Assembly (NCBI GenBank): GCA_964587565.1
Contig: CAZPLK010000001.1
Location: forward strand, 120,088 to 184,087
Reading direction: 5' to 3'
From: an uncultured Muribaculaceae bacterium
Lineage (GTDB): Bacteria; Bacillota_I; Bacilli_A; RF39; UBA660
Length of the DNA stretch: 64,000 nt
Part shown: piece by piece, positions 9,397-57,100 of the stretch
How the letters are laid out: each line of letters starts with the position of its first letter
Position numbering within the stretch: the stretch's first letter is position 1
The notes under the pieces: model-generated
Seen by the model: only the letters and a program-made list of their open reading frames with translations
What the model was told of the DNA's origin: nothing
Database searches by the model: none
Translations under genes and position numbers: made by a program

Positions 9397-11544
9397 ATGA
9401 ATGAATTAATTATTAATGAAATAGGACAAAATTTAAAATTGAAAAACGAATATATAATAGCCACCCTGAAATTATTGAGTGAGGGAAACACTATACCTTT
9501 TATTGCGAGGTATAGAAAAGAGCAAACAGGAAATTTAGATGAAGAACAAATACGGGCAATTAATGATGTTTATGAATATGAAGTTAATTTGTTGAACAAA
9601 AAAGAAGATGTAATAAGACTGATAGAAGAAAAGGATATGATGACAGCTGAGTTACATCAAAAAATAATGCAAGCAAAAAAACTAATTGAAGTTGAAGATT
9701 TATATAGACCATACCGAGAAAAACGCAAAACAAAAGCAACAGAAGCGATAAAAAAAGGTTTAGAACCATTAGCAAAATTAATTATGCAATTTCCAACACA
9801 AGGTAGTTTTGATGAATTAGCTAAACCATTTGTAAAAGATGAAGTTGAATCACTTGAAGAAGCTTTAGAAGGTGCTAGTTATATAATAGCAGAAACTATT
9901 AGTGATAATGCTAATTACCGCAAATGGATTAGAAATAAAACATATAACACCGGGGTAATCACTAGTAAATTAAGAAAAAATGCAAATGATGATAAAAAAA
10001 CTTATGAGATGTATTATGAGTATGAAGAAAATGTTAAAAACATAAAACCTCATCGTGTGTTGGCAATAAATAGAGGTGAAAAAGAAAAAATATTAAATGT
10101 GAAAATTAATGTTGATGAAAATAGTATTATAAGTTATTTAAATAAACAACTTATTGAAAATAGTGAATCATTTGTTGTATCTATTGTAACTGAAACTATA
10201 AAAGACAGTTATAAACGGTTAATAGCACCGAGCATAGAAAGAGAGATTAGGGCTGAATTATCATCAGTAGCAGAAGATGTAGCGATAAATAATTTTAGTA
10301 AAAATTTAGAAAAATTATTGTTACAACCCCCATTAAGAGACAAAATTATTTTGGCACTTGATCCAGCATATAGAACTGGATGTAAATTAGCTGTTATTGA
10401 TTATACTGGCAAAAAATTAGATGTAAAAGTTATTTTCCCACATGAACCAAAACTAGAAACAGAAAAAAGTAAAACAATAATGAAAGATTTAATTGAAAAA
10501 TATAAAGTTGACGTAATTGCAATTGGTAACGGTACAGCATCAAGAGAAAGTGAAGCTTTTGTTGCATCATTGATAAAAGAATTAAATAAAAAAGTTGAAT
10601 ATATAATAGTTAATGAAGCTGGTGCTAGTGTTTATTCAGCTAGTAAACTAGCAGCTGAAGAGTTTCCAAATTTAAATGTAGAAGAAAGAAGTGCCATCAG
10701 TATAGGGAGAAGATTGCAAGATCCATTATCTGAATTAGTTAAAATTGATCCTAAAAGTATTGGAGTCGGTTTATATCAACATGATGTATCTAATAAAAAA
10801 CTCACTGAATCATTAGATTTTGTAGTAGTTAAGGCTGTTAATCAAGTAGGTGTTAATATTAATACAGCATCACCTTATTTATTGAAATATGTGTCAGGAT
10901 TAAATAGAAGAAATATTAATAAAATTATTAATTATAGAAATATTCACGGTAAAATAAAATCAAGGGACGAACTTATAAATGAAAAATTATTAACTGATAA
11001 TGCTTATGTACAAGCAGGAGGATTTTTGCGAGTAATTAATGGAAATAACCCACTCGATTCTACAGACATCCATCCTGAAAGTTATAATATAGCAGAGCAA
11101 TTATTGACCAATTTAGGAATGGATCAAACTTCCATTGGTACCAAGGAGTTAATTGAAAAATTAAATAAACTGCATATTAATGAATATATCGAAAAACTTC
11201 AAACGGATAAATATACACTAGAAGATATTGTTAAATCTTTAATAAAACCTAATAGGGATCCAAGGGATTTAATGGAAAAACCATTATTAAAAAGTGACAT
11301 ATTAAAAATAGAAGATTTAACAGAAGGATTAAAATTACAAGGAACAGTTAGAAATGTTGTTGATTTTGGTGTGTTTATTGATATTGGTTTAGATAATGAT
11401 GCCTTAGCACATATATCTAGATTAACAGATAGATATATAAACCATCCTGATGAAGTTGTTAGTGTTGGGGATATTGTTGATTGTTACGTATATGAAATAG
11501 ATAGTGATAAAAAAAGGGTATCACTATCATTAATTAAAAAATAA
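9397..11544 (+). CDS. tex: Tex-like transcription accessory protein (YqgF/HhH/S1 domains)
   Basis: ATG 9397 follows a GGGAGA SD. IPFIARYRKEQTG N-terminus, a YqgF-like core (DPAYRTGCKLAVID) and a C-terminal S1 domain (GTVRNVVDFGVFIDIG). Confidence 0.9.
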   Translation: MNELIINEIGQNLKLKNEYIIATLKLLSEGNTIPFIARYRKEQTGNLDEEQIRAINDVYEYEVNLLNKKEDVIRLIEEKDMMTAELHQKIMQAKKLIEVEDLYRPYREKRKTKATEAIKKGLEPLAKLIMQFPTQGSFDELAKPFVKDEVESLEEALEGASYIIAETISDNANYRKWIRNKTYNTGVITSKLRKNANDDKKTYEMYYEYEENVKNIKPHRVLAINRGEKEKILNVKINVDENSIISYLNKQLIENSESFVVSIVTETIKDSYKRLIAPSIEREIRAELSSVAEDVAINNFSKNLEKLLLQPPLRDKIILALDPAYRTGCKLAVIDYTGKKLDVKVIFPHEPKLETEKSKTIMKDLIEKYKVDVIAIGNGTASRESEAFVASLIKELNKKVEYIIVNEAGASVYSASKLAAEEFPNLNVEERSAISIGRRLQDPLSELVKIDPKSIGVGLYQHDVSNKKLTESLDFVVVKAVNQVGVNINTASPYLLKYVSGLNRRNINKIINYRNIHGKIKSRDELINEKLLTDNAYVQAGGFLRVINGNNPLDSTDIHPESYNIAEQLLTNLGMDQTSIGTKELIEKLNKLHINEYIEKLQTDKYTLEDIVKSLIKPNRDPRDLMEKPLLKSDILKIEDLTEGLKLQGTVRNVVDFGVFIDIGLDNDALAHISRLTDRYINHPDEVVSVGDIVDCYVYEIDSDKKRVSLSLIKK

Positions 11545-41155: not shown

Positions 41156-42205
41156 ATGATGTGTAATAATAAAGGATTTACATTAATCGAATTATTAGCA
41201 GTAATAGTAATACTTGCAATCATCATGTTAATCACAACACCAACAGTATTAAATATAATAGAAAATGCAAGGGTCGAATCATTTAAAACATCCGTTTATG
41301 GAATAATAAACACTGTTGAACAAAGTTATGCCAAAGAAACTCTAACAAAATCTTTTCCAACGGTAGTAACATACATATATAAAAATGGGAAAGAGATATC
41401 TAGTAATAAAAAGGAGTTAAAATTTAAAGGCAAAAAACCTGAATCAGGAATGATTATAATAAATAATAATGGTGTAGTTTCATTAGCTTTATACAATAGA
41501 GTATATTGCGCAGTTAAAGATAGTACAACTAACGAGGTAGAGGTTGAAAAAACATCAAGTTCAGAGTGTGAGTTATCATATCCATGTGGGACTGATTTAT
41601 TTGATTTTCGGGATGGGGAATTATATAGAACACTAAAAATAGGAGATCAGTGTTGGATGGCCGAAGATTTAAGATATGATTGCTCCAAATCCGGGTATAA
41701 CAATATTGGTTCCGCAAATAGTTGGAGTGGAAGTAATAATTGTGGTGATGGCGAATATAATACAATTTTATACCAGTGGCCAGTTGCTATGGATGGAAGT
41801 ACAGAAGAGAGTTCACAGGGCTTATGTCCAAGTGGTTGGCATATACCTAGTGATGATGAGTGGAAAAAGTTGGAACAACATCTAGGTATGACAGTGGACG
41901 AAGTTAATAAACCAGATTGGAGAGGTAATGATCAAGGTGATCAATTAAAATCCCTTCAATATAATTGGTGTTTAGAAGCAAACAGTTGTGGCACTTCGGG
42001 ATTCGACGCTATGCCAGTGGGCGGAAGGCAAATAGATGGTAAGTTTTATAATGTAGATTCAACTAGTTATTGGTGGACATCCACCATTTCAGATACATCA
42101 GCCTGGGTAAGACGAATTAATAATATAAATACTAATATTTATAGAAACAATCCAACCCAATTGTATGGTAGAGGAGTGCGTTGCATTATAAATATAAATA
42201 ATTAA
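41156..42205 (+). CDS. Type IV pilin-like protein fused to a FISUMP (TIGR02145-like) lectin-fold domain
   Basis: Own TGtTATAAT promoter (41126-41134). Class III signal MMCNNKG|FTLIELLAVIVILAII with Glu at +5. C-terminal FRDGELYRTLKIGDQCWMAEDL...CPSGWHIPSDDEWKKL...YWWTST...GRGVRCI matches the Fibrobacter succinogenes major paralogous domain pattern. Confidence 0.75.
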   Translation: MMCNNKGFTLIELLAVIVILAIIMLITTPTVLNIIENARVESFKTSVYGIINTVEQSYAKETLTKSFPTVVTYIYKNGKEISSNKKELKFKGKKPESGMIIINNNGVVSLALYNRVYCAVKDSTTNEVEVEKTSSSECELSYPCGTDLFDFRDGELYRTLKIGDQCWMAEDLRYDCSKSGYNNIGSANSWSGSNNCGDGEYNTILYQWPVAMDGSTEESSQGLCPSGWHIPSDDEWKKLEQHLGMTVDEVNKPDWRGNDQGDQLKSLQYNWCLEANSCGTSGFDAMPVGGRQIDGKFYNVDSTSYWWTSTISDTSAWVRRINNINTNIYRNNPTQLYGRGVRCIININN

Positions 42206-43230: not shown

Positions 43231-43554
43231 ATGAATATACAATTTAAAAAAGGTGTATTAGAATTAATAGTGTTAGTATCAGTAAGTGAAAAGGATATGT
43301 ACGGCTATGAATTAATTGCACTCGTATCTGAAATAATAGATATAAACGAAGGAAGTATATATCCATTATTAAAAAGAATGACAAATGAAAAATATTTTGA
43401 TACTTATTTAGCAGAATCAAACGAGGGGCCACCTAGAAAGTATTATAAAATAACTAATCTTGGGAAAGAAAGAATGGTTGATTTAGTAGAAGCTTGGAAA
43501 ACATTTTCAACATCTGTTAATGCGTTTATAGAAGGGAGCAATATAAATGAATAA
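43231..43554 (+). CDS. PadR-family transcriptional regulator
   Basis: 107-aa winged helix. MYGYELI, GSIYPLLKRM and PRKYYKIT motifs. Confidence 0.85.
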   Translation: MNIQFKKGVLELIVLVSVSEKDMYGYELIALVSEIIDINEGSIYPLLKRMTNEKYFDTYLAESNEGPPRKYYKITNLGKERMVDLVEAWKTFSTSVNAFIEGSNINE

Positions 43555-44890
43555 AAAGCAATTTTTAAATATATTAAAAGAAAAATTATCAATCTTAAAT
43601 AAAGATGAAAAACAAGATATTATTAACGAATATAGTGACATAATCGATGAAAAAATTAAAAATGGAAAAAGTGTTAAAGAAGCTATAAATGATTTTGGAG
43701 ATATAGATGAATTAACAACAGAAATATTAAAAGCTTATAAAATAGATCCTAGTTATAATTCTTTCAAAAGTAAAGAAGAAATGGGTTTTTTTGAAGGTAT
43801 AGAAATAGCAATCAATGTTATTGCAACTAAAATGGCTGAAATAACCAAAAAAACAATTGAAAAAATTCAAAATTATGATAATGATATTACAATTGAAAAA
43901 GTATTTGAAATAATAATAAAATTTTTCATATTAATGATCATTATAATGATACTTAAAATACCTTTCCATATATTACAAGAAATAGGTATTGGGATTTTAC
44001 ATTTTGGAAATAATCCAATTTCACAAATGATTAAATTTTTATGGAAAACTTTTGTTTGGGCAATATACTTTATCTCTTGTTTTGTTTTATTATTTATATT
44101 TTTTAAAACTCAATTAGATAAATCAACTAATAATAACGAAGTGAAAATTCCAAAAGATTTAGAAATCAAAAAAAAAGAAAAAGAAAAACAACAACAAAAT
44201 AAAAAAGAATCATTTTTAAAAACAGTAGTAATCATATTTTTGACAGTACCAATAGTTTTAATAAATATACCCTTATATGTTGCACTATCTGTAATAATAT
44301 ACGCGTTAATTAAAGGCATTAGTATATATGGATTATTAATGGTATTTTTAGGCCTAATTATAATATTTAGTAATTTATATAATATGGTTATATCAATTTT
44401 CCACAATAAAAATAAAATATATTTGTTTCCCTATATAGTTGGAATGATATTAATTATAATTGGTAGTTTGTTCACATTTGAATATATAAATAAAATCACA
44501 TATTATGATAAATTGCCTGAAACAAACTTAACTATTGAAACGGATATATATAAAGATAAAATAAAAGGTAAATTAATAATTCAACATGATAACAGCAGAA
44601 CTACTTTAAAAGTTGATAATAGTATGAAGGATAATGAAATTAAAATAGTTACTAAATATTATGATGGCTATGTAGATTTTTCTAAAAATATATATTTTAA
44701 TGAAACTTCTAATATCGCGTATTTGAATTTTCATTATAAGGATACAAGCCCCAAATATAAAGATTTAATTCATGTAATAATTAATAACTTAAAAGATAAT
44801 AAAATATATAACTATTCTCAAATATATAAATTATTTGTTGAAGTACATGGTAATGATAATACATTAAAAAATGTAAAGGTGGATTGGTAA
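43547..44890 (+). CDS. DUF1700 (HAAS)-type membrane protein with an extended C-terminal extracytoplasmic domain
   Basis: N-terminal MNKKQFLNILKEKLSILNKDEKQDIINEYSDIIDEK matches the DUF1700 partner of PadR regulators. Several TM helices. Overlaps the padR stop. Confidence 0.7.
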   Translation: MNKKQFLNILKEKLSILNKDEKQDIINEYSDIIDEKIKNGKSVKEAINDFGDIDELTTEILKAYKIDPSYNSFKSKEEMGFFEGIEIAINVIATKMAEITKKTIEKIQNYDNDITIEKVFEIIIKFFILMIIIMILKIPFHILQEIGIGILHFGNNPISQMIKFLWKTFVWAIYFISCFVLLFIFFKTQLDKSTNNNEVKIPKDLEIKKKEKEKQQQNKKESFLKTVVIIFLTVPIVLINIPLYVALSVIIYALIKGISIYGLLMVFLGLIIIFSNLYNMVISIFHNKNKIYLFPYIVGMILIIIGSLFTFEYINKITYYDKLPETNLTIETDIYKDKIKGKLIIQHDNSRTTLKVDNSMKDNEIKIVTKYYDGYVDFSKNIYFNETSNIAYLNFHYKDTSPKYKDLIHVIINNLKDNKIYNYSQIYKLFVEVHGNDNTLKNVKVDW

Positions 44891-44955
44891 AACAATTCAC
44901 CTTTTTTAAAAGGAAAAACATATAAATTACCATATATTATTTATGAGGTGATTTT

Positions 44956-46482
44956 ATGAGAAGATTTTTAATGTTTATACTAATGATATTATTATTTAGA
45001 AATAATGTGAATGCAAAAGAAGAGGTGTATTATTCAGATTACAGTGATTTCGGAGAATATACTGAACAAAAAATATTGGGAAGTGATGTTATTGATGTTA
45101 AAGAAGTTTATAAATACAAGTATTATAAAGAAGTCAAAGAATTTGGCGATTATTATATAGAAGGGCATAACGAAGAACAATTTCCTTATATTGATAGAAG
45201 TGATTTTATAATTAGTGATTACACACCTTTTAGTGATGAAAAACCATTAGAAGAAAAGGGACGTGAGCTTAAAACAAGAAATGTTTATCATTATTCAAAT
45301 ATGAAAAAAATAAGATATATTCATTTAACAGACTTTTGGGGTACTCGTGATCAATTAAACATCAATGAAATTATTATAAGATCGAATAGTGAATATTTAC
45401 CATATAATTTATATTGCGAAGGATGCAGTGAAGGATTTTATGAAAAAGTTAGTAATAAAGAAGTCAAAACTGAAAATTCATATGTTTTACATGGTGGTTA
45501 CATTAGGATTGATTTAAGAAATTATTATGATTTATCTGATTTAGAAATTAGAATTTATATTACTGATTTAGGAACGAGTGAAAAAGGGTTTCAAATAAGC
45601 ACAAGTCGGGAACAAGATTTAAACCATAAAATTTTTAATACAATAAAGGAAAGGCAATTTTTCACTAATGAAAATATTTCCGATTTTAAAACTGTTGTTT
45701 ATAAACTTGATCAATTACAGTGGGTTGAACCAGAATGGGAAGAAACACTAAAAACTTACGACGAGATGCTTCCTTCAAGTACGAGAATGGTTGACAAAAA
45801 AGAAGAATATAGTTATAGAGATACTTACTATAAATATTATAATTTAAACAAAAAATATGCCGATGGTTATTATTTGGATTCGCCCATTGATTATCCTCTA
45901 AAAGATGTTGATTATAAAAAAACTTATTACCAATTCAGGGAAAGAGATAAAGTGGTAATTTCATCGTCAATTATTATAAGTGATAAAAACCAAAAATTGG
46001 AAGAGTTTATTATATCAAATTCAACAAATAAATATATAGTTAATAGTAATATAAACTATAATAAAAATGGTAAATATACTGCTTTATATGAATTCCCATT
46101 TATTACTGTAGAAAAGGAAATAATTGTCGATATTCCTAATAATCATAATGAAAACACCAAAAATATTAATACTAGTAAAGTTGTTAATCAAGAACTAAAA
46201 AATCTTAATAAAAATGAAGGAGGTAATCATACAAATAAAGTTAAATTACAAAATAAAGAAACCATCGATAATAATGAAATAAAAGTTAACATTCCAAGTA
46301 TTGAAAAAACAGATACAATAAACATAACAAAACCAATCGCTCAAACGAATGTAAAAGAACAATTAAAAATTGAAGATAAAGAAAAAGTAAATAAAAATTA
46401 TTTGTTAGTTCCATTGTCAATAATAATTATTATTACTGCAATACAAATAATAAAATTAAGCACAAATCAAAAAAAGTCGTAA
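44956..46482 (+). CDS. Secreted Tyr/Lys-rich surface protein with a C-terminal TM anchor, unknown family
   Basis: Signal peptide ending NVNA|KEE. C-terminal helix LLVPLSIIIIITAIQIIKL followed by a basic tail. Recurrent Y-x-Y-(K/R)-x-x-Y-Y-K motifs. Confidence 0.55.
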   Translation: MRRFLMFILMILLFRNNVNAKEEVYYSDYSDFGEYTEQKILGSDVIDVKEVYKYKYYKEVKEFGDYYIEGHNEEQFPYIDRSDFIISDYTPFSDEKPLEEKGRELKTRNVYHYSNMKKIRYIHLTDFWGTRDQLNINEIIIRSNSEYLPYNLYCEGCSEGFYEKVSNKEVKTENSYVLHGGYIRIDLRNYYDLSDLEIRIYITDLGTSEKGFQISTSREQDLNHKIFNTIKERQFFTNENISDFKTVVYKLDQLQWVEPEWEETLKTYDEMLPSSTRMVDKKEEYSYRDTYYKYYNLNKKYADGYYLDSPIDYPLKDVDYKKTYYQFRERDKVVISSSIIISDKNQKLEEFIISNSTNKYIVNSNINYNKNGKYTALYEFPFITVEKEIIVDIPNNHNENTKNINTSKVVNQELKNLNKNEGGNHTNKVKLQNKETIDNNEIKVNIPSIEKTDTINITKPIAQTNVKEQLKIEDKEKVNKNYLLVPLSIIIIITAIQIIKLSTNQKKS

Positions 46483-47658: not shown

Positions 47659-48099
47659 ATGGAGAAAAAACAGTATAAACAAATAGTCGATAACAATACA
47701 CCAATGGAAAACAGACTATATAATGGAATGGTAGCTTTTATTGTCGGTGGTTTTATGGGAGCGATAGGGGAATTATTAATCCAGATTTATTCTTATTTTT
47801 TTAACATATCCAGTTCCGAAGCTTCTGTGTTAATGATTATGACACTTATATTTTTAGGATGCTTGTTTACTGCTTTAGGTTTTTTTGATAATTTAGTTAA
47901 TTTCGCCAAAGCAGGATTAATTATACCGATAACAGGTTTCGCCCATGCTACTATGAGTGCAGCGTTAGAACATAGGGAAGAAGGGTTAGTTACTGGAGTA
48001 GGTGCTAATATATTTAAATTATCTGGTACTGTAATTGTGTTTGGTATTGTTAGTGCTTATATTGTAGGACTAATTAGATTAATGTTTTTAGGAGGATAA
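47659..48099 (+). CDS. spoVAC: Stage V sporulation protein AC
   Basis: 146 aa, 4 TM helices, conserved PITGFAHA and GANIFKL motifs. Confidence 0.85.
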   Translation: MEKKQYKQIVDNNTPMENRLYNGMVAFIVGGFMGAIGELLIQIYSYFFNISSSEASVLMIMTLIFLGCLFTALGFFDNLVNFAKAGLIIPITGFAHATMSAALEHREEGLVTGVGANIFKLSGTVIVFGIVSAYIVGLIRLMFLGG

Positions 48100-48100
48100 T

Positions 48101-49087
48101 ATGACTTTTACATATAAAAATGTATATATAAATGATGTTAGTACAATTGTAGGCCCTTATGAAAAAAAAGGACCAATTGGAAATTTATTTGATAAATATT
48201 ACGATGATTTGTATTTTGGTGAAAAAACATGGGAACAAGCAGAAGTGAAATTAATTGTTGAAAGTGTTGAATTATTATTAAAAAAATTAAATAAAAATAA
48301 ACTAGATATTGATGTACATTTGTCTGGTGATTTGTTAAATCAAATTGTAGCAACAAATTATGCCTCGGCAAAATTAGGTATTCCATTACTAGGGCTTTAT
48401 AGTGCTTGTGCAACTAGTGTTGAGGCTCTTATTATAGGAGCAAATATGATTGAATCAAGCCAAATTAATAATTGTATTTGTAGTGTTTCTTCTCATAATA
48501 ATGCAGCGGAAAAACAATTTAGATATCCTATTGAATATGGTGGTCCTAAACCAAAAACAGCAACTTTTACAACAACTGGTTGTGCTAGTGCATATTTAAG
48601 TAAACAACTAAAAGGTATAAAAATAGAAAGTGGCACGATTGGTACTGTTAGTGAGTTAGGTATTACTGATCCTTATCATATGGGTGCTATTATGGCTTCA
48701 TCAGCAGGTGATACAATAAATAAGCATTTAAATGATTTAAATAGAACCTTTGATTATTACGATTTAATTATTACAGGAGATTTAGGAAAGTATGGTTCAA
48801 AAATTTTAATAGATTATATGAAAACGAAATACGGTATTAATTTAACTAATCATCAAGATGCTGGTGTTATGATATACGATTTAAAAACACAACCCGTTTA
48901 CTCTGGTGGAAGTGGGACAGCGTGTGCCCCGTTAGTAACATATACACATGTTTTTAAACTAATGCAAAAAAAGGAAATCAAAAAAGTATTATTAGTTGCA
49001 ACAGGTGCATTACTATCATCGACAATGGCTTTACAAAAACTTGGAATACCATCAATATCACACGCAATTAGTTTGGAGGTATTGTAA
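48101..49087 (+). CDS. spoVAD: Stage V sporulation protein AD (thiolase-like fold)
   Basis: 328 aa. YFGEKTWEQAE, GLYSACATS and SGGSGTACAP motifs typical of SpoVAD. Confidence 0.85.
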   Translation: MTFTYKNVYINDVSTIVGPYEKKGPIGNLFDKYYDDLYFGEKTWEQAEVKLIVESVELLLKKLNKNKLDIDVHLSGDLLNQIVATNYASAKLGIPLLGLYSACATSVEALIIGANMIESSQINNCICSVSSHNNAAEKQFRYPIEYGGPKPKTATFTTTGCASAYLSKQLKGIKIESGTIGTVSELGITDPYHMGAIMASSAGDTINKHLNDLNRTFDYYDLIITGDLGKYGSKILIDYMKTKYGINLTNHQDAGVMIYDLKTQPVYSGGSGTACAPLVTYTHVFKLMQKKEIKKVLLVATGALLSSTMALQKLGIPSISHAISLEVL

Positions 49088-49437
49088 TGATATACATAAA
49101 TGCATTTATATTTTGTGGAACAATTTGTTTAATTGGACAAATAATTTTAGACAACACTAAATTAACACCAGGCCACGTTACTGCTATTTTAGTTACAATT
49201 GGTACCTTTCTTGATTTATTCCACATATACGATCGCTTTGTATTGTGGGCAGGTGGTGGGGCATTAGTACCAATAACTAGTTTTGGTCATTTATTAATTC
49301 ATGGAGCACTAGCTAAAGCTAGCAACCTTGGACCGATGGGGTTAGTAATGGGGATGTTTGATTTAACAGCCGCTGGAATTGTTTCAGTAATCTTTTTCTC
49401 TTTTATATTAGCTTTAATATTTAAACCTAAAGATTAA
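49087..49437 (+). CDS. spoVAEb: Stage V sporulation protein AE(b)
   Basis: 116 aa, 3-4 TM helices, GGGALVPITSFGH motif. ATGA-type coupling to spoVAD. Confidence 0.8.
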   Translation: MIYINAFIFCGTICLIGQIILDNTKLTPGHVTAILVTIGTFLDLFHIYDRFVLWAGGGALVPITSFGHLLIHGALAKASNLGPMGLVMGMFDLTAAGIVSVIFFSFILALIFKPKD

Positions 49438-49479
49438 AAATGTAAATATGCTTTAAAAATGATTTTAAATGGTGATAAT

Positions 49480-52344
49480 ATGAAGAAAAATAATAAAAAA
49501 GCATTTACATTAGTAGAGTTATTAGCAGTAATATTTATTATTGGCATTTTATCTGTAATTACTATACCTACCATTAACAAATTAACTTTGCAAAGTAAAG
49601 AACAATTATATAAAAATCAAATAGATAACATAAAACATGGTGCTAAAAACTGGGCTGCTAGTAATTTTTACATGTTGCCAGAAAGTGAAGGAGAACAAAT
49701 TACACTTACATTAGGACAGTTACAAATAGGAGGATTTGTTGCATCTGATATTAAAGATCCGAGAAATAAAAAACCATTTCCAAGAGATATGGAAATAATA
49801 ATCAAAAGAATTATGAATAGTTATCGCTATGAAGTAATAGAAGGTAGTGGTGGTGAAAATGGTAACTTAGATTTTGATTCTCCAACTATAATTTTAAATG
49901 GTTCAGCTCATGAAATTGTGGAAATTAATACAAATTATGTTGAAAAAGGTGCACTAGCAAAAGATCCAAGTGGTAGTCTAATAGATGATATTAATATTTT
50001 AATTCAATCTAACAATAAAGAAGTAGATAAAGTAGATACTAGTAAATTAGTACAATATAAAATAACTTATAGTGCTGTTTATAATAATAATACGGCAACT
50101 GCAATAAGAACAGTTACTATTAAAGATACAATACCCCCGAATTTAAATGTACCTGGTAATATAATAATATCATCCGATGAGGTATTAAATTACGATTTTA
50201 TGGAAGGGGTTAGTGCAACAGATAACTCTCTTGAAAATGTAAATATTACAATAAAAGGAACAGTAAGTGTACTTCCAGGAAAGTACTTGCTAACTTATAT
50301 TGCGACAGATTCATCTTCCAATAAAACAGAAAAAACAAGGCACATTACAGTAGTAAGTGCTACATATCCAACAATATCAATAATAGGTAGTAGTATAGTA
50401 AATATAAATGTGGAAGAACCATATAAAGACATGGGAGCAACTGCTAGTGATTTATTAGATGGTGATTTAACTAATAAAATTATTGTTAGTGGTACAGTTA
50501 ATGTTAATATACCTGGAAATTATAATATTACTTATGAAGTTACTAATAGCATAGGTAAAACTACAACTGTAATAAGGGAAGTAAAAGTAATTGATAATAT
50601 ACCACCTGTTATAGTTTTTGGGACAAATGGAAACAGTACTTATGCAAGAAATTATAATACCAAAATAACAGTAAATGATATACATTCATTGGTAAATAAA
50701 AATTCACTAAAATATTTATGGTCAACAACTACTACAACTCCTAGTGAAAGTTCTTTTACTAATAAATTCACAAGTGGTGATATAATATCAACGCCAAATG
50801 ATTTAAGTGGTAGTTATTATTTATGGATAATAGCAAAAGACACCGTTGGGAATACTGCAATTAAAAGAACAAATGCATTTAACTTGGATAATACTAATCC
50901 TAGTGTTACAAACATAGTTAGTAATGTAACAAATATAACAGAAACAGGTTTTACTATAACAAGAAGCGGAAATGCAACTGATGCCCATAGTGGATTAGCT
51001 AGCATTCCATATATGTATCAAATAAGTACAAACAATGTAAGTTGGATTACAAATTGTACTAGTAGTGCTACAACTTGTGTTGTAACTGGGTTAGACCTTG
51101 AAACAAAATACTATTATAGAATATGTGCATCGGATAAAGTTGGTAATCAATCGTGTGTAGCAAGTAAAAACACTACAACCGAAGGCGGTGATTATAGTAT
51201 TGTTAAAAACGTTAACAGACCAGTATTGTTGCCAGGTATGACGCCAATTAAATGGAATGGTATGACAGAGGTGATTACTACTACAAATGATACATCTTGG
51301 TATGATTATACTAATAAAATGTGGGCTAATGCAAAAACAAAAGACGGATCTTATTGGGTGTGGGTACCAAGATATGCATATCAAATTTCAAGTGGTTATC
51401 ATACTAAAAGTGCTGGTAATATAAATATAAAATTTTTACAAGGTAATACTAATGTTGCATCTGATAATACAACAGTGGCAACAACCCCTACTTATAGTGG
51501 TTCTAGGCAAACTAATTATATAAGACATCCCGCTTTCCAATTTGGAACAGAAGAAATCCTAGGATTTTGGGTAGCAAAATTCGAACCAAGTGGTACTTTA
51601 AGCAATATAAATATTTTACCAAACGCATCAACATTAACAAATATAAATGTTAAAGATATGTTTAATGCAAGTTTAAATATGAAATCCAATTCAAAGTATG
51701 GTTGGGGTACCAATACTGTTGATACCCACATGGCTAAAAATACAGAATGGGGAGCAATAGCTTATTTAAGTAAATCCATATATGGGGCGAATAGTGAAGT
51801 GTGGATTAATAATAGTAACAATTATACGACTGGTTGTGCTGGAAGTAGTATATCAGCTAGTAGTTATTCTGGTTGTCAAAACGCTTATAATACAACAATT
51901 GGTGTTAGAGCTAGTACAACACATAATATATATGGTGTGTACGATATGAGTGGTGGCGCGAATGAATATGTAACAGGAAATTTAAATCGTACAACAGCAA
52001 GTAGTGGTTTTTCTATAACTGAACTTAGAGGAATAGATTCAAAGTATATTGATGTATATAGTGGTTATAATAGTACGATATTTGGTGATGCTATTTATGA
52101 AACGAGTTTAACTCAAAAAATGAGTGATTTTGGCAATGCTAACAAATTAAATGAATCATGGCACAATCAGAGATCAACTTTAATCGGTACTTATAGTATA
52201 GCTGGAAGAAGTATATCAGCACCATGGTATATTAGAGGTGATGATTATGCGGGGAGAGAATTAGCAGGATTATTTTCATTTAGACCCGATGCTGGAAATG
52301 CTTCATCAAGTTATTCTTTTAGACCAATAGCAATACCTCAATAA
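49480..52344 (+). CDS. 954-aa modular type IV pilin-like protein (pilin module, 3 Ig-like DUF5011-type repeats, Fn3-like domain, FGE/SUMF1-like lectin-fold domain)
   Basis: ATG 49480 follows a GGTGA SD. Class III signal MKKNNKKA|FTLVELLAVIFIIGIL. Repeats of the P.I.L.G....pY.d.Ga.A.D..dG.l...I...G.V....pG.Y.itY...D..gN pattern, DxHSGL Fn3-like segment. The C-terminus has GFWVAKFEPS...NTEWGAIAYL...GVYDMSGGANEYV...WYIRGDD...SFRP. Confidence 0.7.
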   Translation: MKKNNKKAFTLVELLAVIFIIGILSVITIPTINKLTLQSKEQLYKNQIDNIKHGAKNWAASNFYMLPESEGEQITLTLGQLQIGGFVASDIKDPRNKKPFPRDMEIIIKRIMNSYRYEVIEGSGGENGNLDFDSPTIILNGSAHEIVEINTNYVEKGALAKDPSGSLIDDINILIQSNNKEVDKVDTSKLVQYKITYSAVYNNNTATAIRTVTIKDTIPPNLNVPGNIIISSDEVLNYDFMEGVSATDNSLENVNITIKGTVSVLPGKYLLTYIATDSSSNKTEKTRHITVVSATYPTISIIGSSIVNINVEEPYKDMGATASDLLDGDLTNKIIVSGTVNVNIPGNYNITYEVTNSIGKTTTVIREVKVIDNIPPVIVFGTNGNSTYARNYNTKITVNDIHSLVNKNSLKYLWSTTTTTPSESSFTNKFTSGDIISTPNDLSGSYYLWIIAKDTVGNTAIKRTNAFNLDNTNPSVTNIVSNVTNITETGFTITRSGNATDAHSGLASIPYMYQISTNNVSWITNCTSSATTCVVTGLDLETKYYYRICASDKVGNQSCVASKNTTTEGGDYSIVKNVNRPVLLPGMTPIKWNGMTEVITTTNDTSWYDYTNKMWANAKTKDGSYWVWVPRYAYQISSGYHTKSAGNINIKFLQGNTNVASDNTTVATTPTYSGSRQTNYIRHPAFQFGTEEILGFWVAKFEPSGTLSNINILPNASTLTNINVKDMFNASLNMKSNSKYGWGTNTVDTHMAKNTEWGAIAYLSKSIYGANSEVWINNSNNYTTGCAGSSISASSYSGCQNAYNTTIGVRASTTHNIYGVYDMSGGANEYVTGNLNRTTASSGFSITELRGIDSKYIDVYSGYNSTIFGDAIYETSLTQKMSDFGNANKLNESWHNQRSTLIGTYSIAGRSISAPWYIRGDDYAGRELAGLFSFRPDAGNASSSYSFRPIAIPQ

Positions 52345-52374
52345 GAACAAATAACATTTATTTGTTCTTTTATT
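52344..52374 (+). terminator. Rho-independent terminator after the 954-aa pilin-like gene
   Basis: AGAACAAATAA-cat-TTATTTGTTCT perfect 11-bp stem followed by a T run. Confidence 0.75.
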
Positions 52375-52417
52375 ATATATTCCAACAATTAGTCCATAAT
52401 AAAAAAGAGGTAATATT

Positions 52418-54082
52418 ATGATTCAAAATAAAAACAAAGGTTTTACATTGATCGAATTATTAAGTGTAATTGTAGTTTTTGTTATTATAATGCTTATAGT
52501 AAGTCCAGTAGTTATAAACATAATAAAAAGTGCTAATAAAGGTGCTTTTAAAAACAGTGTTAACGGGATAGTGAAAAGTGCTATATTAGAACAATCTAAA
52601 AATGTATTAACCGGTAAAGAAGTGAATGAACTTATTTTTACATATGAAAACGGTGTTGAAAAATCAAATATTATTGGGGCAAAACTTAATTATAAAGGTA
52701 AAAGTCCAAGTGAAGGTGTTATTATTGTCAATAAAAAAGGACAAGTTTCACTTGCTCTTTTCGATTCAATGTGTGCTATTAAATCATTCGAAGGCAATGT
52801 GGAAATTAAACCAAATAGTAAAGAAGATTGTCAATTAAAATTATTAATACCTACTATTGAATTAATTGGAAATAATACAATAGATATAGAAATAAATACT
52901 AAATATGAAGAACTAGGTGTAATTGCAAAAAAATATAACGGAGATGTTATTAAAAATGTTGATATTAAAATTAAATATAATGGCATAATACAAAAAACTG
53001 TTGATACTAGTAAATTAGGAACATATGAATTAATATATTCAGTACAAGAAGATAATCAAAGGGTAGAGATATTAAGAATTATACATATTGTAGATACAAT
53101 CCCTCCTGTTTTAAACATTCCAAAAGATATAGTTATTGACATCAAAAATTTTAATGATTTTGATTTTATGGATGGTGTTAGTGCCACGGATAATAGCAAT
53201 GAAAAAATTAATATAATTACAACTAGTAACATTGTTCCAATACCAGGTAATTATTATATTAAATATGAAGCATTTGATTCATCAGGGAACAAAACGGAAA
53301 AGATAAGGCAAATTAACATAATAGATACAACACCACCTAATATAAATAAATTAGTTATATCAACTAAAAATGTAACATCTAATTCATTTGTCATTATAAT
53401 GGAAGGAGAAGTTTTTGACGAACACAGTGACTTAGCACAAAAACCATTTATTTATCAAACAAGTACTGATAACGTTAATTGGCAAACAAAATGTACAACA
53501 AGTAATAAAGATTGTTTAGTTGAAAATTTAAATAATAACACAACATATTATTACCGTTTATGTGTCATAGATATATATGATAATAAAGCGTGTTCTAATA
53601 ATAAAAGTATAACAACTAGTAATCCGCTTTATTACTACGATAAATATAGGGTAGGTATTAATTACTATAATTACCGAAATCCTTCATCAAATTTTTCTTA
53701 TAGTTATACAACATCTGAAAAATCATTATCAAGTGGTAGTACCATATCAATTGCAGGTACAACGAGTTATGGTTTTAATAGTACATCTGGTTTTTATGGT
53801 ACTGGCTCATCTGTAACATTGACTCAATCAACAATTTCAAACGGATATACTAGATACTATGCAAGCGGAAGTTCAATTTCACAACATAAAATAGTTAATA
53901 AAAGAACATCAGGCTCAACAGTATATTGGAAAGAAGAAGTTTATGTTATGAGTTGTCAATATGATACAAGTTATACGAGAGGAGCGTTTATAGAAACTGT
54001 GACAGCTATTACTGGTCAGTATCCTAATAACGGTAGACATACAGATGGTTATTGGTATGTCAGAAGAGAATTGGTTAGTTAA
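52418..54082 (+). CDS. 554-aa modular type IV pilin-like protein (pilin module, 2 Ig-like repeats, Fn3-like domain, Tyr/Ser/Gly-rich C-terminal domain)
   Basis: Class III signal MIQNKNKG|FTLIELLSVIVVFVII. The pilin module is paralogous to 41156-42205 (LNYKGKSPSEGVIIVNKKGQVSLALF vs LKFKGKKPESGMIIINNNGVVSLALY). The Ig/Fn3 part is paralogous to 49480-52344 (DFMDGVSATDNS / DFMEGVSATDNS). Confidence 0.7.
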   Translation: MIQNKNKGFTLIELLSVIVVFVIIMLIVSPVVINIIKSANKGAFKNSVNGIVKSAILEQSKNVLTGKEVNELIFTYENGVEKSNIIGAKLNYKGKSPSEGVIIVNKKGQVSLALFDSMCAIKSFEGNVEIKPNSKEDCQLKLLIPTIELIGNNTIDIEINTKYEELGVIAKKYNGDVIKNVDIKIKYNGIIQKTVDTSKLGTYELIYSVQEDNQRVEILRIIHIVDTIPPVLNIPKDIVIDIKNFNDFDFMDGVSATDNSNEKINIITTSNIVPIPGNYYIKYEAFDSSGNKTEKIRQINIIDTTPPNINKLVISTKNVTSNSFVIIMEGEVFDEHSDLAQKPFIYQTSTDNVNWQTKCTTSNKDCLVENLNNNTTYYYRLCVIDIYDNKACSNNKSITTSNPLYYYDKYRVGINYYNYRNPSSNFSYSYTTSEKSLSSGSTISIAGTTSYGFNSTSGFYGTGSSVTLTQSTISNGYTRYYASGSSISQHKIVNKRTSGSTVYWKEEVYVMSCQYDTSYTRGAFIETVTAITGQYPNNGRHTDGYWYVRRELVS

Positions 54083-54104
54083 AAGGGCGTTATACCCCTT
54101 TTTC
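54081..54104 (+). terminator. Rho-independent terminator
   Basis: AAAAGGG-cgttatac-CCCTTTT followed by TC. Confidence 0.55.
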
Positions 54105-54180
54105 TTATTAATAATTTACTTTAAATATAACTTAATATATAGTATAATATACATATAGTATAATAGAAAAGGGGAGTTAT

Positions 54181-57100
54181 ATGAAGAAAAAATTAACAAT
54201 TGATGGTAATGAAGCTTGTACTATAAGTGCTTATGCCTTTACTGAAGTTGCAGGTATATATCCTATTACTCCATCGAGTCCTATGGCGGAATTAATGGAT
54301 ACTTGGAGTAATGAGGGGAAATTAAATTTATTTAATGACACTGTTAAAGTTGTAGAAATGCAGAGTGAAGCTGGGGCTGCAGGTATGGTACACGGTTCTT
54401 TACAAGCAGGCCTTTTAACAACAACATTTACGTCTAGTCAAGGCTTACTTTTAATGATACCAAACATATACAAAATGGTTGGGGAAATGCTACCCGGCGT
54501 GATTCATGTAGCAGCAAGATCAATCTCGACTCAAGCACTTAGTATTTTTGGTGATCATCAAGATATTTATGCAACAAGGCAAACAGGTATAACAATGCTA
54601 GCTTCTTCATCTGTTCAAGATGTAGCATATTTATCAGCTATCGCCCATTTAGTAGCGATAAAATCGTCTCTACCAGTAATGCACTTTTTTGATGGTTTTA
54701 GAACAAGTCATGAATTACAAAAAATAGATACATTAGATGTGGGAACTTATTGTAAATTAATCGATAAAGAAGCGGTGAGAAAATTTAGGCAAAGGGCGCT
54801 GAAACCAAATAAGGCAATTACAAGAGGTACTGCCCAAAATGATGATATTTATTTCCAAGCTGTGGAAGTAAGAAATAAATTTCACGATAAAGTTCCATTT
54901 ATTGTAAATGAATATATGGAAAAAATTAATGAAATAGCAGGTACAAATTATTTACCATTTAATTATTATGGAAGTGAGAATGCTGAAAATATTATTGTTG
55001 CTATGGGTTCTGTAACTGAAACAATTAAGGAAACAATAGATTATCTAAATAACTTAGATTATAATATCGGTTTAATCGAAGTACATTTATATAGACCATT
55101 TAGTTCAAAACATTTATTAAACGTACTACCTAAAACAGTTAAGAAAATCGCAGTTTTGGATAGAACAAAAGAACCAGGTAGTATAGGAGAACCGCTATAT
55201 TTAGATGTAGTTGCTGCATTAAAAGGAAAAGATATTTCCATTGTTGGTGGTCGCTATGGATTGTCAAGTAAAAATACAACACCACGTCAAATAAAAGCAG
55301 TTTACGATATGTTAAGTGCTGAATTAAAACATAACTTTACAATCGGCATCGAAGATGATGTTACTAACTTAAGCTTAGAAGTTGAAGAAGATTTTACAAT
55401 AACAAATGCTAGAGAATTTGTAATATATGGTTACGGTAGTGATGGTATGGTAACAGCAGCCCAATCAATTATAAAAATTGTTGGTGATAATACAAATAAA
55501 TATGTTCAAGGTTATTTTCAATATGATTCCAAAAAATCAGGTGGAGTCACAGTAGGACACTTAAGGTTTTGTGACAACTCAATTCGTGCCACTTATTATG
55601 TTGAAAAACCAGAATTGGTAGTAGTAACAAAAGATAGTTATTTAAATGATTTTAAAGTTATTCACAACATAGCTAATGATGGAACATTTATATTAGCTAC
55701 ATCTAAAACTGATGAAGATGTCCAAAAATTACTTACAAAAGAAATGAAACAAATAATTAATGAAAGAAATATTAAATTTTATATTATAAACGCGTACGAA
55801 CTAGCGCGTAAAGTGGGACTTCAAAATAGAATAAGCACTATTATGCAAACTGCTATTATGAAAGTAACTAATATTGTTGATTACAATTTAGCTATAAAGG
55901 AAATGAAACAAATGGTAGCAGATACCTTTGCATTAAGAGGTAATAATATTGTTGAAGCCAACTATGATGCAATTGATAGTGTTGAACAATATTTGAAAAA
56001 AATAGAAGTAAATATGGATAACAATAGGGAAGAGAAAAATCATGTTTTTGACGGTGTTTTCGAGGCAATGTCAAGAAGAGAAGGTGATTTATTACCAACA
56101 TCAGCATTTTTAACTAACCCTGATGGAACATTTGAAGGTGGAACAACAGCTTTTGAAAAAAGAGCAATTAGTGATGTAGTCCCAAGGTGGATTAGTAATA
56201 ATTGTATACAATGTGCTCAGTGCTCATTCGTTTGTCCACATGCTGTTATAAGACCATTTCATTTAAGTGAAGAAGAATATGAAAAAGCTCCTGACTATAT
56301 TAAGGAAAGGTGTATTAAACCTATTGAGAAACATTTACAAGAATATTATTTCATAATAAGTGTATCCGTAAAAGATTGTACAGGATGCCGCTTGTGCATT
56401 AACGTCTGTCCAGGTCGTGGTGGCCAAAAAGCTTTAGTTCCAAAAGATTTAACTGGGGAAATAAAAAACTATGAACAAGATATAGCAGATTATTTATTTA
56501 ACAACATTAGTGATAAAAATTTACTGCCTAACACATCAATAAAAGGTACTCAATTAAAAGAACCTAAATTTAGCTTTAGTGGAGCTTGTGCAGGATGTGG
56601 AGAAACCGCTTATATTAAATTGTTAACACAACTGTTTGGTGATCAAATGATTATCGCTAACGCCACTGGATGTTCATCAATATATGGTGCTAGTGCACCT
56701 AGTATGCCATACACGGTTCCTTGGGCGAGTTCTTTATTTGAAGATAATGCAGAATATGGTTATGGTATACTTGTTGCTTCTGATGTAATGAGAAATAGAA
56801 TAAGAAAAATAATGACAGATAATCTAGATGGTGTTAATAAAGAATGGTTTTCAAAGTGGCTTGAAAATTATGATGATTTTAAAATTACAAAAGAAGTTTA
56901 TGAAAATATAAATTATGATAAAGCTCCAAAAGAGTTAATCGAATTAAAAGATTATATAAAAAGTAGAGTTATTTGGACAATAGGCGGTGATGGCTGGGCA
57001 TATGACATTGGTTTTGGCGGAATAGATCATGTTTTGGCAAGTAATGACAATGTTAATATATTAGTATTAGATTCACAAGTTTATTCGAATACTGGTGGGC

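Follow-up and report, generated by a model that had tools for sequence, protein, structure and literature searches.

Modular pilins, which combine a pilin module with one or more domains that are not specific to type IV pili (T4P), have been described as adhesins (Raynaud et al. 2021, PMC8179133) and are a recognised route to sticky type IV pili. In Streptococcus sanguinis, the modular pilins PilB and PilC bear a von Willebrand factor A (vWA) module and a lectin module, respectively (PMC8179133; Shahin et al. 2023, PMC9934059), and CofB, a large minor pilin of enterotoxigenic Escherichia coli (ETEC), has been discussed as a tip-exposed adapter (PMC8179133). Few modular pilins have been studied, and none of those has the architecture considered here, which is encoded on the plus strand at 49480..52344 of a 64,000-nt stretch (hereafter the window, meaning the whole of the DNA that was analysed) of contig CAZPLK010000001.1 from an uncultured bacterium of the class Bacilli_A. 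The product joins a prepilin-type N-terminus, by way of a long stalk of β-sandwiches, to a C-terminal head with the fold shared by formylglycine-generating enzyme (FGE) and C-type lectins, and we lean towards reading it as a type IV pilin or pseudopilin of the modular kind, acting as a surface adhesin or receptor.

The head brings in a second group of described systems, the diversity-generating retroelements (DGRs), in which a template repeat (TR) and a reverse transcriptase (RT) rewrite a variable region (VR) of a target gene. The cellular targets of DGRs have been characterised as membrane-anchored binders (Roux et al., PMC8144416), and the cellular variable proteins of Bacillota have been described only as resembling phage receptor-binding proteins (RBPs; Macadangdang et al. 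2024, bioRxiv 10.1101/2024.11.15.621889). Published surveys list a GspG-type pilin domain as only a rare holder of a VR, and a FISUMP domain as holding the VR in 43 targets (PMC11661182). Literature searches returned nothing linking DGRs with type IV pilins, nor DUF5011 with a pilin.

The gene occupies one intact open reading frame (ORF; 49459..52344, plus strand), for which the most likely start is the ATG at 49480 and the stop lies at 52344. This start is preferred over the ATG at 49459 because a Shine-Dalgarno-like GGTGAT is found only before the former, no such motif being read upstream of the latter, and it is the start that had been chosen in an initial annotation made from the letters alone. 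The 954-aa product begins with MKKNNKKA followed by FTLVELLAVIFIIGILSVITIP, and is made up, from N- to C-terminus, of a class III signal with a pilin module, a run of three Ig-like DUF5011 domains, one further β-sandwich, an Fn3-like β-sandwich and a head of ~385 aa. The initial annotation had read essentially this stack of modules, and Pfam, NCBIfam and AlphaFold (AF2) agree that it exists; the co-occurrence of an N_methyl signature, three PF16403 stretches, two further β-sandwiches and a C-type-lectin head places the protein among the modular pilins. A full-length AlphaFold model, computed from a 63-sequence alignment, was confident for residues 9-567, numbered from the Met at 49480. The features are as follows.

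49470..49475, plus strand: Shine-Dalgarno-like GGTGAT, 4 nt 5' of the ATG at 49480, read from the sequence
49480..49503, plus strand: prepilin leader MKKNNKKA (8 aa, 4 Lys), with predicted cleavage after Ala(-1)
49504..49863, plus strand: pilin module, comprising α1N (FTLVELLAVIFIIGILSVITIP) and then a long α1 helix and a small β-sheet, from hidden Markov models (HMMs) and AF2
49885-50127, plus strand: Ig1, DUF5011/Bact_surface_Ig-like (PF16403; AF2 residues 136-216)
50134-50358, plus strand: Ig2, DUF5011/Bact_surface_Ig-like (PF16403; AF2 residues 219-293)
50368-50595, plus strand: Ig3, DUF5011/Bact_surface_Ig-like (PF16403; AF2 residues 297-372)
50605..50889, plus strand: fourth Ig-like β-sandwich (AF2 residues 376-470, pLDDT >90), a block conserved in the family
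50899..51180, plus strand: Fn3-like β-sandwich (AF2 residues 474-567, strands 475-566, pLDDT 82-91)
51190..52341, plus strand: head with the FGE-sulfatase/C-type-lectin fold (aa 571-954), from AF2, Foldseek against PDB and BFVD, and a profile match to TaqVP
52228..52341, plus strand: last 38 aa, YIRGDDYAGRELAGLFSFRPDAGNASSSYSFRPIAIPQ, matching in position the DGR variable region of homologues

The N-terminus has the make-up of a type IV pilin. A hydrophilic leader ending in Gly or Ala and followed by Phe or Met at +1 is present (MKKNNKKA/FTLVE, the slash marking the predicted cleavage site), and the ensuing ~21 hydrophobic residues of α1N include Phe1, Glu5, Gly14 and Pro22. The N_methyl model PF07963 scores 26.3 bits against a cut-off of 21.2 in a Pfam scan, and NCBIfam TIGR02532 scores 22.4 bits against 16.3. 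The predicted structure places an α1 helix of ~50 residues (11-61) on a pilin sheet whose strands run to about residues 119-128, and the family profile matches the S. sanguinis pilin PilE1 (8pfb) with an E-value of 3e-11. Pro22 recurs in 126 of 140 canonical family N-termini (90%). The pilin-like N-terminus was thus correctly recognised in the initial annotation, which had also singled out Ala at position -1 as an oddity; this second point does not stand, as 21 of ~82 prepilin N-termini among the homologues, about a quarter, have Ala(-1), and a class III leader by definition ends in Gly or Ala according to a review of type IV filaments (PMC10191384). With the basic 8-aa leader, the four residues named above and both HMM thresholds passed, the plain Sec anchor that had been put forward as the outcome speaking against a pilin was not seen.

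The stalk consists, by prediction, of five tandem β-sandwiches. The first three are members of PF16403/DUF5011, which matches with 126.2 bits (threshold 27) in three stretches, as had been proposed at the outset; AF2 folds them with pLDDT values of 85-95, and their pairwise identities range from 18 of 74 to 29 of 85 aligned positions. The D(T/N)IPP motif that was thought to bound every repeat is found after repeats 1 and 3 (aa 216 and 372), whereas repeat 2 ends in VVSATYPTISI. The following segment of ~80 aa, originally left unassigned, is recognised as a fourth Ig-like domain because it is confidently predicted as a β-sandwich and is conserved in the family consensus; in Pfam it yields a weak Big_3_4 match only (E 0.027). 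The Fn3-like segment, whose β-sandwich may have either Fn3 or Ig topology, likewise gives a weak HMM match, to the NDNF Fn3 model (E 0.062). Foldseek against the PDB relates the stalk as a whole to strings of Ig, Fn3 and cadherin ectodomains, and also to adhesins of bacteria, SiiE and InlK among them.

The FGE-sulfatase/C-type-lectin fold of the head is supported by three independent routes. Because few alignment rows covered it, the head was poorly modelled in the full-length run (pLDDT about 30-60), and a separate model of the last 406 aa, based on an alignment of 24 homologues, was used in its place (pLDDT 89.2, predicted template-modelling score pTM 0.90). The top Foldseek matches of this model in the PDB were solely proteins of the FGE/C-type-lectin fold, with TaqVP (5vf4) first (E 8.8e-10, template-modelling (TM) score 0.42-0.45), followed by PvdO (5.7e-5), Mtd (1e-4), PorK, TvpA, CarF, FGE (8e-3) and EgtB. 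A head-only sequence profile built from 49 sequences had TaqVP as its only significant match (E 1e-4 over 160 residues), in an alignment that spans the motifs HPAF, iWvgKFE, HmmKNsEWGAvaYL and GvYDMSGGawEyv on which the fold had initially been proposed; PvdO and SUMF2, both weak, came below TaqVP. The FGE-sulfatase model PF03781 matches at aa 778-843 below its cut-off of 23.3 bits (E 0.018, 15.1 bits for the full protein; 16.9 bits for the head alone), and weak, sub-threshold matches to it occur in 7 of 25 family members, the best with an E-value of 2e-4. A phmmer search of the head alone against PDB sequences gave noise only. The initial assignment of the C-terminal domain to the FGE/C-type-lectin fold is therefore upheld by structure, profile and, weakly, Pfam, and the lack of any such similarity, which was to have spoken against it, was not seen by Foldseek or profile search.

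The fold is also that of FGE, EgtB, OvoA and PvdO, and several His, Glu and Asp residues of the head are invariant in the family, which, together with the weak PF03781 matches, raises the question of whether the head might be an extracellular enzyme of the FGE/EgtB/PvdO type that modifies a substrate. FGE requires a conserved catalytic, copper-binding pair of cysteines. No conserved pair is present in the head, whose only two Cys are kept in 39% and 26% of 77 family sequences and occupy an insertion instead of following the RGG motif, and on this ground the head is taken to bind and not to act as an FGE enzyme. In both structure and profile, moreover, it is best matched by DGR variable proteins and phage fibres, which are non-enzymatic, and PF03781 stays below its gathering threshold, so that an enzymatic head seems very improbable. 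The predicted structure and the profile place the head nearer to the variable proteins of DGRs than to the FGE enzyme.

This kinship is echoed in the genomes of relatives. In data holding one genome per species, at least 162 loci encode relatives of the head, of which 80 (L001-L080) were fetched with 10 kb on either side and compared to themselves for repeats at the 3' end of the head gene. Three of them contain a repeat of 116-156 nt with one copy over the 3' end of the gene and the other just downstream, and the mismatches between VR and TR fall at template adenines in 16 of 16 cases (L063), 17 of 18 (L024) and 16 of 17 (L035). An RT adjoins each of the three, cut by the contig end in L035, and Avd is also present in L063 and L024. 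Neighbour clustering of the 80 loci found DGR RTs, in 6 of them, to be the sole conserved neighbour of the family. The cassettes are listed below.

L063, 9524-13497: DGR cassette with VR at 11052-11167 and TR at 11419-11534, followed by bAvd and RT
L024, 9503-13146: DGR cassette on a head homologue
L035, 302-3123: DGR cassette on a head homologue
L045, 9665-13294: putative DGR cassette on a head homologue

The L063 cassette scores 60 bits for RVT_1 and 70 bits for bAvd, and its template translates into the Asn-rich string typical of TRs. Its target is a canonical prepilin (MREEKG/FTLIELLAV, with P22; N_methyl 31 bits) located between ribosomal-protein genes and not in a prophage. At least one canonical pilin fusion is, on this evidence, a live DGR target. 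The L045 locus likewise encodes a canonical pilin fusion with a GC-rich, VR-like tail and an adjacent RT and Avd; its TR was not found within the fetched part of the contig. The proven VRs have a GC content of 0.52-0.62, compared with 0.32-0.37 for their genes, and a spike of this kind (+0.15 to +0.30 over the last 120 nt) is seen in 19 of 58 family genes, the 19 having no TR within 10 kb on either side. Such spikes may hint at wider present, past or remote DGR action in the family. Examples are found at L038:9941-11317, L003:1009-2889 and L066:9434-11422.

The head in the window retains the frame on which such variation is displayed. Its last 38 aa align with the VRs and TRs of L063, L024 and L035 and keep the scaffold RG..AGLF..GNA..FR, with differing residues at the positions that DGRs vary; the C-terminal VR on a C-type-lectin scaffold that characterises DGR variable proteins is thus recognisable from the fold, the TaqVP profile and the VR alignment. 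Within the 64-kb window, a second copy of the gene's 3' end that could serve as a TR was not found, and tblastn with the L063 RT and Avd gave no match. The last 120 nt have a GC excess of +0.07, against a family median of 0.086 and +0.17 to +0.26 in proven targets. The window sequence was also found in two bioreactor metagenomes (runs X1/X2), whose contigs both cover 51414-53753 with 0 differences, at a depth of only ~7x and in contigs, which drop rare variants. Because TR, RT and Avd are lacking from the 64 kb and the gene is identical in the contigs of the two metagenomes, the head is probably a fixed-sequence member of the family that is not diversified. It could be argued that a DGR outside the window still hypermutates it in trans, since its homologues are DGR targets, the 38-aa scaffold is kept, the GC-rich tails just described occur in genes without a nearby TR, and the window is 64 kb of a source contig of 221 kb. 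The tail of this gene, with a GC excess under the family median, and the absence of differences between the contigs of the two samples point the other way, as does the lack of DGR components in the window, and we regard hypermutation in trans as improbable. In the same two runs, numerous short contigs also match portions of the gene (pilin N-terminus, Ig repeats and head) at 85-95% similarity across window positions 49000-54200, suggesting that the community has more paralogues or related strains.

The family of the head is large. When 1.84 billion cluster representatives were scanned in full with HMMER, relatives turned up in 3,620 clusters at E<=1e-3, in 2,720 at E<=1e-10 and in 756 at E<=1e-30. 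The commonest form, of about 540 aa in total, has a ~130-aa pilin module joined straight to the head, while elsewhere in the family the head is preceded by other N-terminal membrane anchors; the recurrence of pilin modules or other anchors before the head fits surface display of a binding head as the conserved theme. At the other extreme are giant proteins with up to nine copies of the head, such as P0121 (4516 aa) and P0124 (4340 aa). A further protein, P0062 (1153 aa), combines a FISUMP domain (aa 140-351) with an FGE-like head (aa 780-1151). Nearly all of the 80 loci come from metagenome-assembled genomes (MAGs) that bear the labels uncultured Bacilli, Clostridium/Clostridia or Tenericutes; gut samples of animals or humans are the source of many, and several paralogues per genome are common, with four in tandem in L061.

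One might also suppose that the gene is left over, within a prophage, from a receptor-binding or tail-fibre protein of a phage, given that among the predicted viral structures of BFVD the head matches phage tail (collar) fibres, SUMF1-like domains and fibres of crAss-like phages. A search of 2.9 million viral contigs, however, yielded just 2 relatives, so that the family, which occurs in uncultured Bacilli and Clostridia, is almost entirely cellular. The neighbours of the gene in the window are spoVA, sigF and pyruvate:ferredoxin oxidoreductase (PFOR) genes, no phage genes being among them, and its N-terminus is a prepilin signal, so that a prophage origin is the least credible of the explanations considered. 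In MAGs that are syntenic with the window (2165-57615, protein identity 50-67%), the family genes lie at differing housekeeping junctions: after pheT in L006, directly upstream of PFOR in L049, before prfB in L012, and before ftsEX in L030 and L062. These differing positions imply that family genes are gained by insertion and lost rapidly and frequently.

How the head is presented at the cell surface is the point on which readings diverge, and several results weigh against a polymerised pilin. Among the 146 closest cluster representatives, a canonical prepilin signal with Glu5 is found in just 50, the others being pilin-like without Glu5 (31), plain hydrophobic anchors (31) or other or partial N-termini (34); similarly, a pilin-like N-terminus is present in 29 of 91 family ORFs from the 80 loci and the window, of which only 10 have Glu5. 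Neither the 64-kb window nor the 10 kb on either side of the 80 homologous loci encodes a prepilin peptidase, an assembly ATPase, a platform protein or a small major pilin, or any other T4P or Com machinery. The TM scores to known C-type-lectin-fold proteins in the PDB, about 0.3-0.45, represent a moderate structural likeness, and the gene was present in no RNA-seq run searched. A motif scan for GspE-type Walker A and A24 peptidase signatures in the window and the 80 loci returned only FtsK/SpoIIIE-like proteins. With no pilus machinery in the window or near the homologues, assembly into a filament can only be inferred, and the many family members without a canonical pilin N-terminus imply that polymerisation is not needed for the head to function.

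The main rival explanation follows from these same observations. The protein could be a receptor that stays fixed in the membrane at the cell surface without ever being polymerised, its prepilin-like N-terminus, processed or not, serving solely as a signal-anchor and its Ig stalk carrying the head through the cell wall. Most family members have a plain anchor or a 'GITLIALV...' N-terminus without Glu5, none of the 81 loci has pilus machinery nearby, the family genes are scattered among housekeeping operons, and the membrane-anchored binders that Roux et al. found among cellular DGR targets (PMC8144416) would be a ready precedent. The window protein, in contrast, keeps a basic leader ending in Ala, with Phe1, Glu5, Gly14 and Pro22, all needless for mere anchoring, as well as a predicted, folded pilin β-sheet module of about 120 aa, and for this protein we find a permanent anchor rather unlikely. 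A second type of N-terminus in the family, 'K(G)ITLIALVITIIVLLILA', is pilin-like without Glu5 and precedes the head in MAGs labelled Clostridia; it occurs in L061:5822-12809 (the four genes in tandem) and also in L002, L007, L008, L013, L018, L024 and L035.

If the protein is a modular pilin, as we favour, a prepilin peptidase whose gene lies in another part of the genome would cut off the 8-residue basic leader after Ala(-1), as the motif suggests. The α1N segment, with its Phe1, Glu5, Gly14 and Pro22, would anchor the subunit in the membrane and then dock it into a type IV filament of the Com-like or T4P kind, most likely as a low-abundance or tip subunit because of its bulk of roughly 100 kDa. 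The predicted β-sandwiches would form a stalk of roughly 20 nm projecting a head that, from its predicted structure and homology, would be a non-enzymatic module with a C-type-lectin fold. By analogy, the head would bind an extracellular ligand (a glycan, a protein or the surface of another cell) by means of its last ~40 residues, and the proposed binding face is the one that DGRs rewrite in homologues from related bacteria. For the window organism, the source of variety would instead seem to be a set of pilin genes whose heads differ, namely FISUMP, the FGE-like head and a third module.

These pilin genes are the only ones with a prepilin-type N-terminus that a six-frame motif scan of the window detected, and the three lie within one 13-kb stretch. 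The two companions of the gene described above and the hairpin that follows them are:

41156..42205, plus strand: companion gene 1, a prepilin (KG/FTLIELL) joined directly to a FISUMP domain (PF09603 115 bits, N_methyl 33.9 bits)
52418..54082, plus strand: companion gene 3, 73 nt downstream, a prepilin (KG/FTLIELL) with 2 DUF5011 domains, an Fn3-like domain and a C-terminal module
54081..54102, plus strand: terminator-like hairpin, the only one downstream of the spoVA-pilin-pilin run

The first of these had been identified as a pilin-FISUMP gene from its sequence, and both of its HMM scores confirm that it is real. The FISUMP domain, put forward in the initial annotation as a second, candidate lectin-like fold, showed no similarity to the head in an hhalign comparison of the two alignments (probability 0.15) and had no relative among PDB sequences. 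The C-terminal module of gene 3 (about 53603-54079) comprises 160 aa, is rich in Tyr, Ser, Gly and Thr and has no Pfam match; its sole relative is a 33-aa C-terminal match to P0104.

The window has a GC content of about 27% and is coded almost wholly on one strand. Its genes include the housekeeping genes prfB, ftsEX, rnf, pheST, era, recO, glyQS, sepF/divIVA and ileS, as well as a sigma factor, spoIIAA-like/sigF, spoVAC/AD/AEB and PFOR. The two large pilin genes directly follow spoVAC-spoVAD-spoVAEB (47659-54102), with a 42-nt gap to the ATG at 49480, and no terminator-like hairpin is found from the spoVA genes until 54081-54102. Co-transcription of pilin genes with a forespore operon, as this arrangement might suggest, would be odd. 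A promoter scan returned 55 sites, with 60 expected by chance. Elsewhere in the window, at 43231-46482, are a PadR regulator, a HAAS-domain membrane protein and then a 508-aa secreted, C-terminally anchored protein without a Pfam match.

The FGE-like lectin-fold head, missed by domain databases, ranks with the cargoes most often joined to pilin-like N-termini by uncultured Bacilli of guts and digesters, and through it the cellular variable proteins of Bacillota, known as phage-RBP-like, gain a concrete identity. The link between type IV filaments and retroelement hypermutation in Gram-positive bacteria joins two subjects, and the family offers expressible candidates for learning what these little-known bacteria attach to. 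It is tempting to speculate that uncultured Bacillota possess a class of type IV filament subunits with phage-RBP-like lectin heads at the pilus tip, rewritten by DGRs in some lineages to give hypervariable pili, and that the window organism has a fixed repertoire in which at least 3 pilin-borne heads are swapped on one machinery; we advance this idea tentatively, as a possibility that is not the most likely one.

Compared with the known modular pilins, the architecture is new, and its head comes from a large, unannotated, DGR-associated family of the lectin fold. PilB and PilC of S. sanguinis likewise start with a class III signal and a small pilin module, followed by C-terminal adhesive module(s), in the same type of monoderm host and with the same predicted binding of ligands at the tip; here, however, a predicted five-domain Ig/Fn3 stalk separates pilin from head, the head is FGE-like and not of the vWA or ConA-like type, and the genes lie outside any pil operon. 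CofB of ETEC is also a large minor pilin with extra β-rich domains (a β-repeat and a β-sandwich) beyond the pilin module, but, unlike the window protein, it is a trimeric type IVb pilin of a diderm with unrelated domains. FGE/SUMF1 (PF03781), PvdO and the C-domain of EgtB share the overall fold and the order of motifs with the head, which differs from FGE/SUMF1 in falling below the Pfam threshold, in the missing catalytic Cys pair, in being ~100 residues larger with extra N-terminal β-strands, and in its predicted extracellular position fused to a stalk.

The DGR variable proteins TaqVP (5vf4), Mtd (1yu0-4) and TvpA (2y3c) have in common with the head the scaffold HPAF / KNxEWGA / YDMxGxxWEy / RGG...FR and a variable face encoded by the extreme C-terminus, and true VR/TR/RT cassettes are carried by homologues of the window gene. 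The window gene itself, in contrast to these three, is without a TR, an RT and an Avd throughout the 64 kb and lacks the compositional footprint of a DGR, and the variable proteins known so far are either lipoproteins or fibres of phages, whereas the head here is fused to a pilin. The type V pilus tips of Bacteroides that are diversified by DGRs (10.1101/2024.11.15.621889) also place a C-type-lectin head at the end of a pilus-type stalk; they use FimA-like subunits joined by strand exchange, as opposed to the type IV pilin chemistry seen here, and would represent, at the level of the family, a parallel solution in another phylum.

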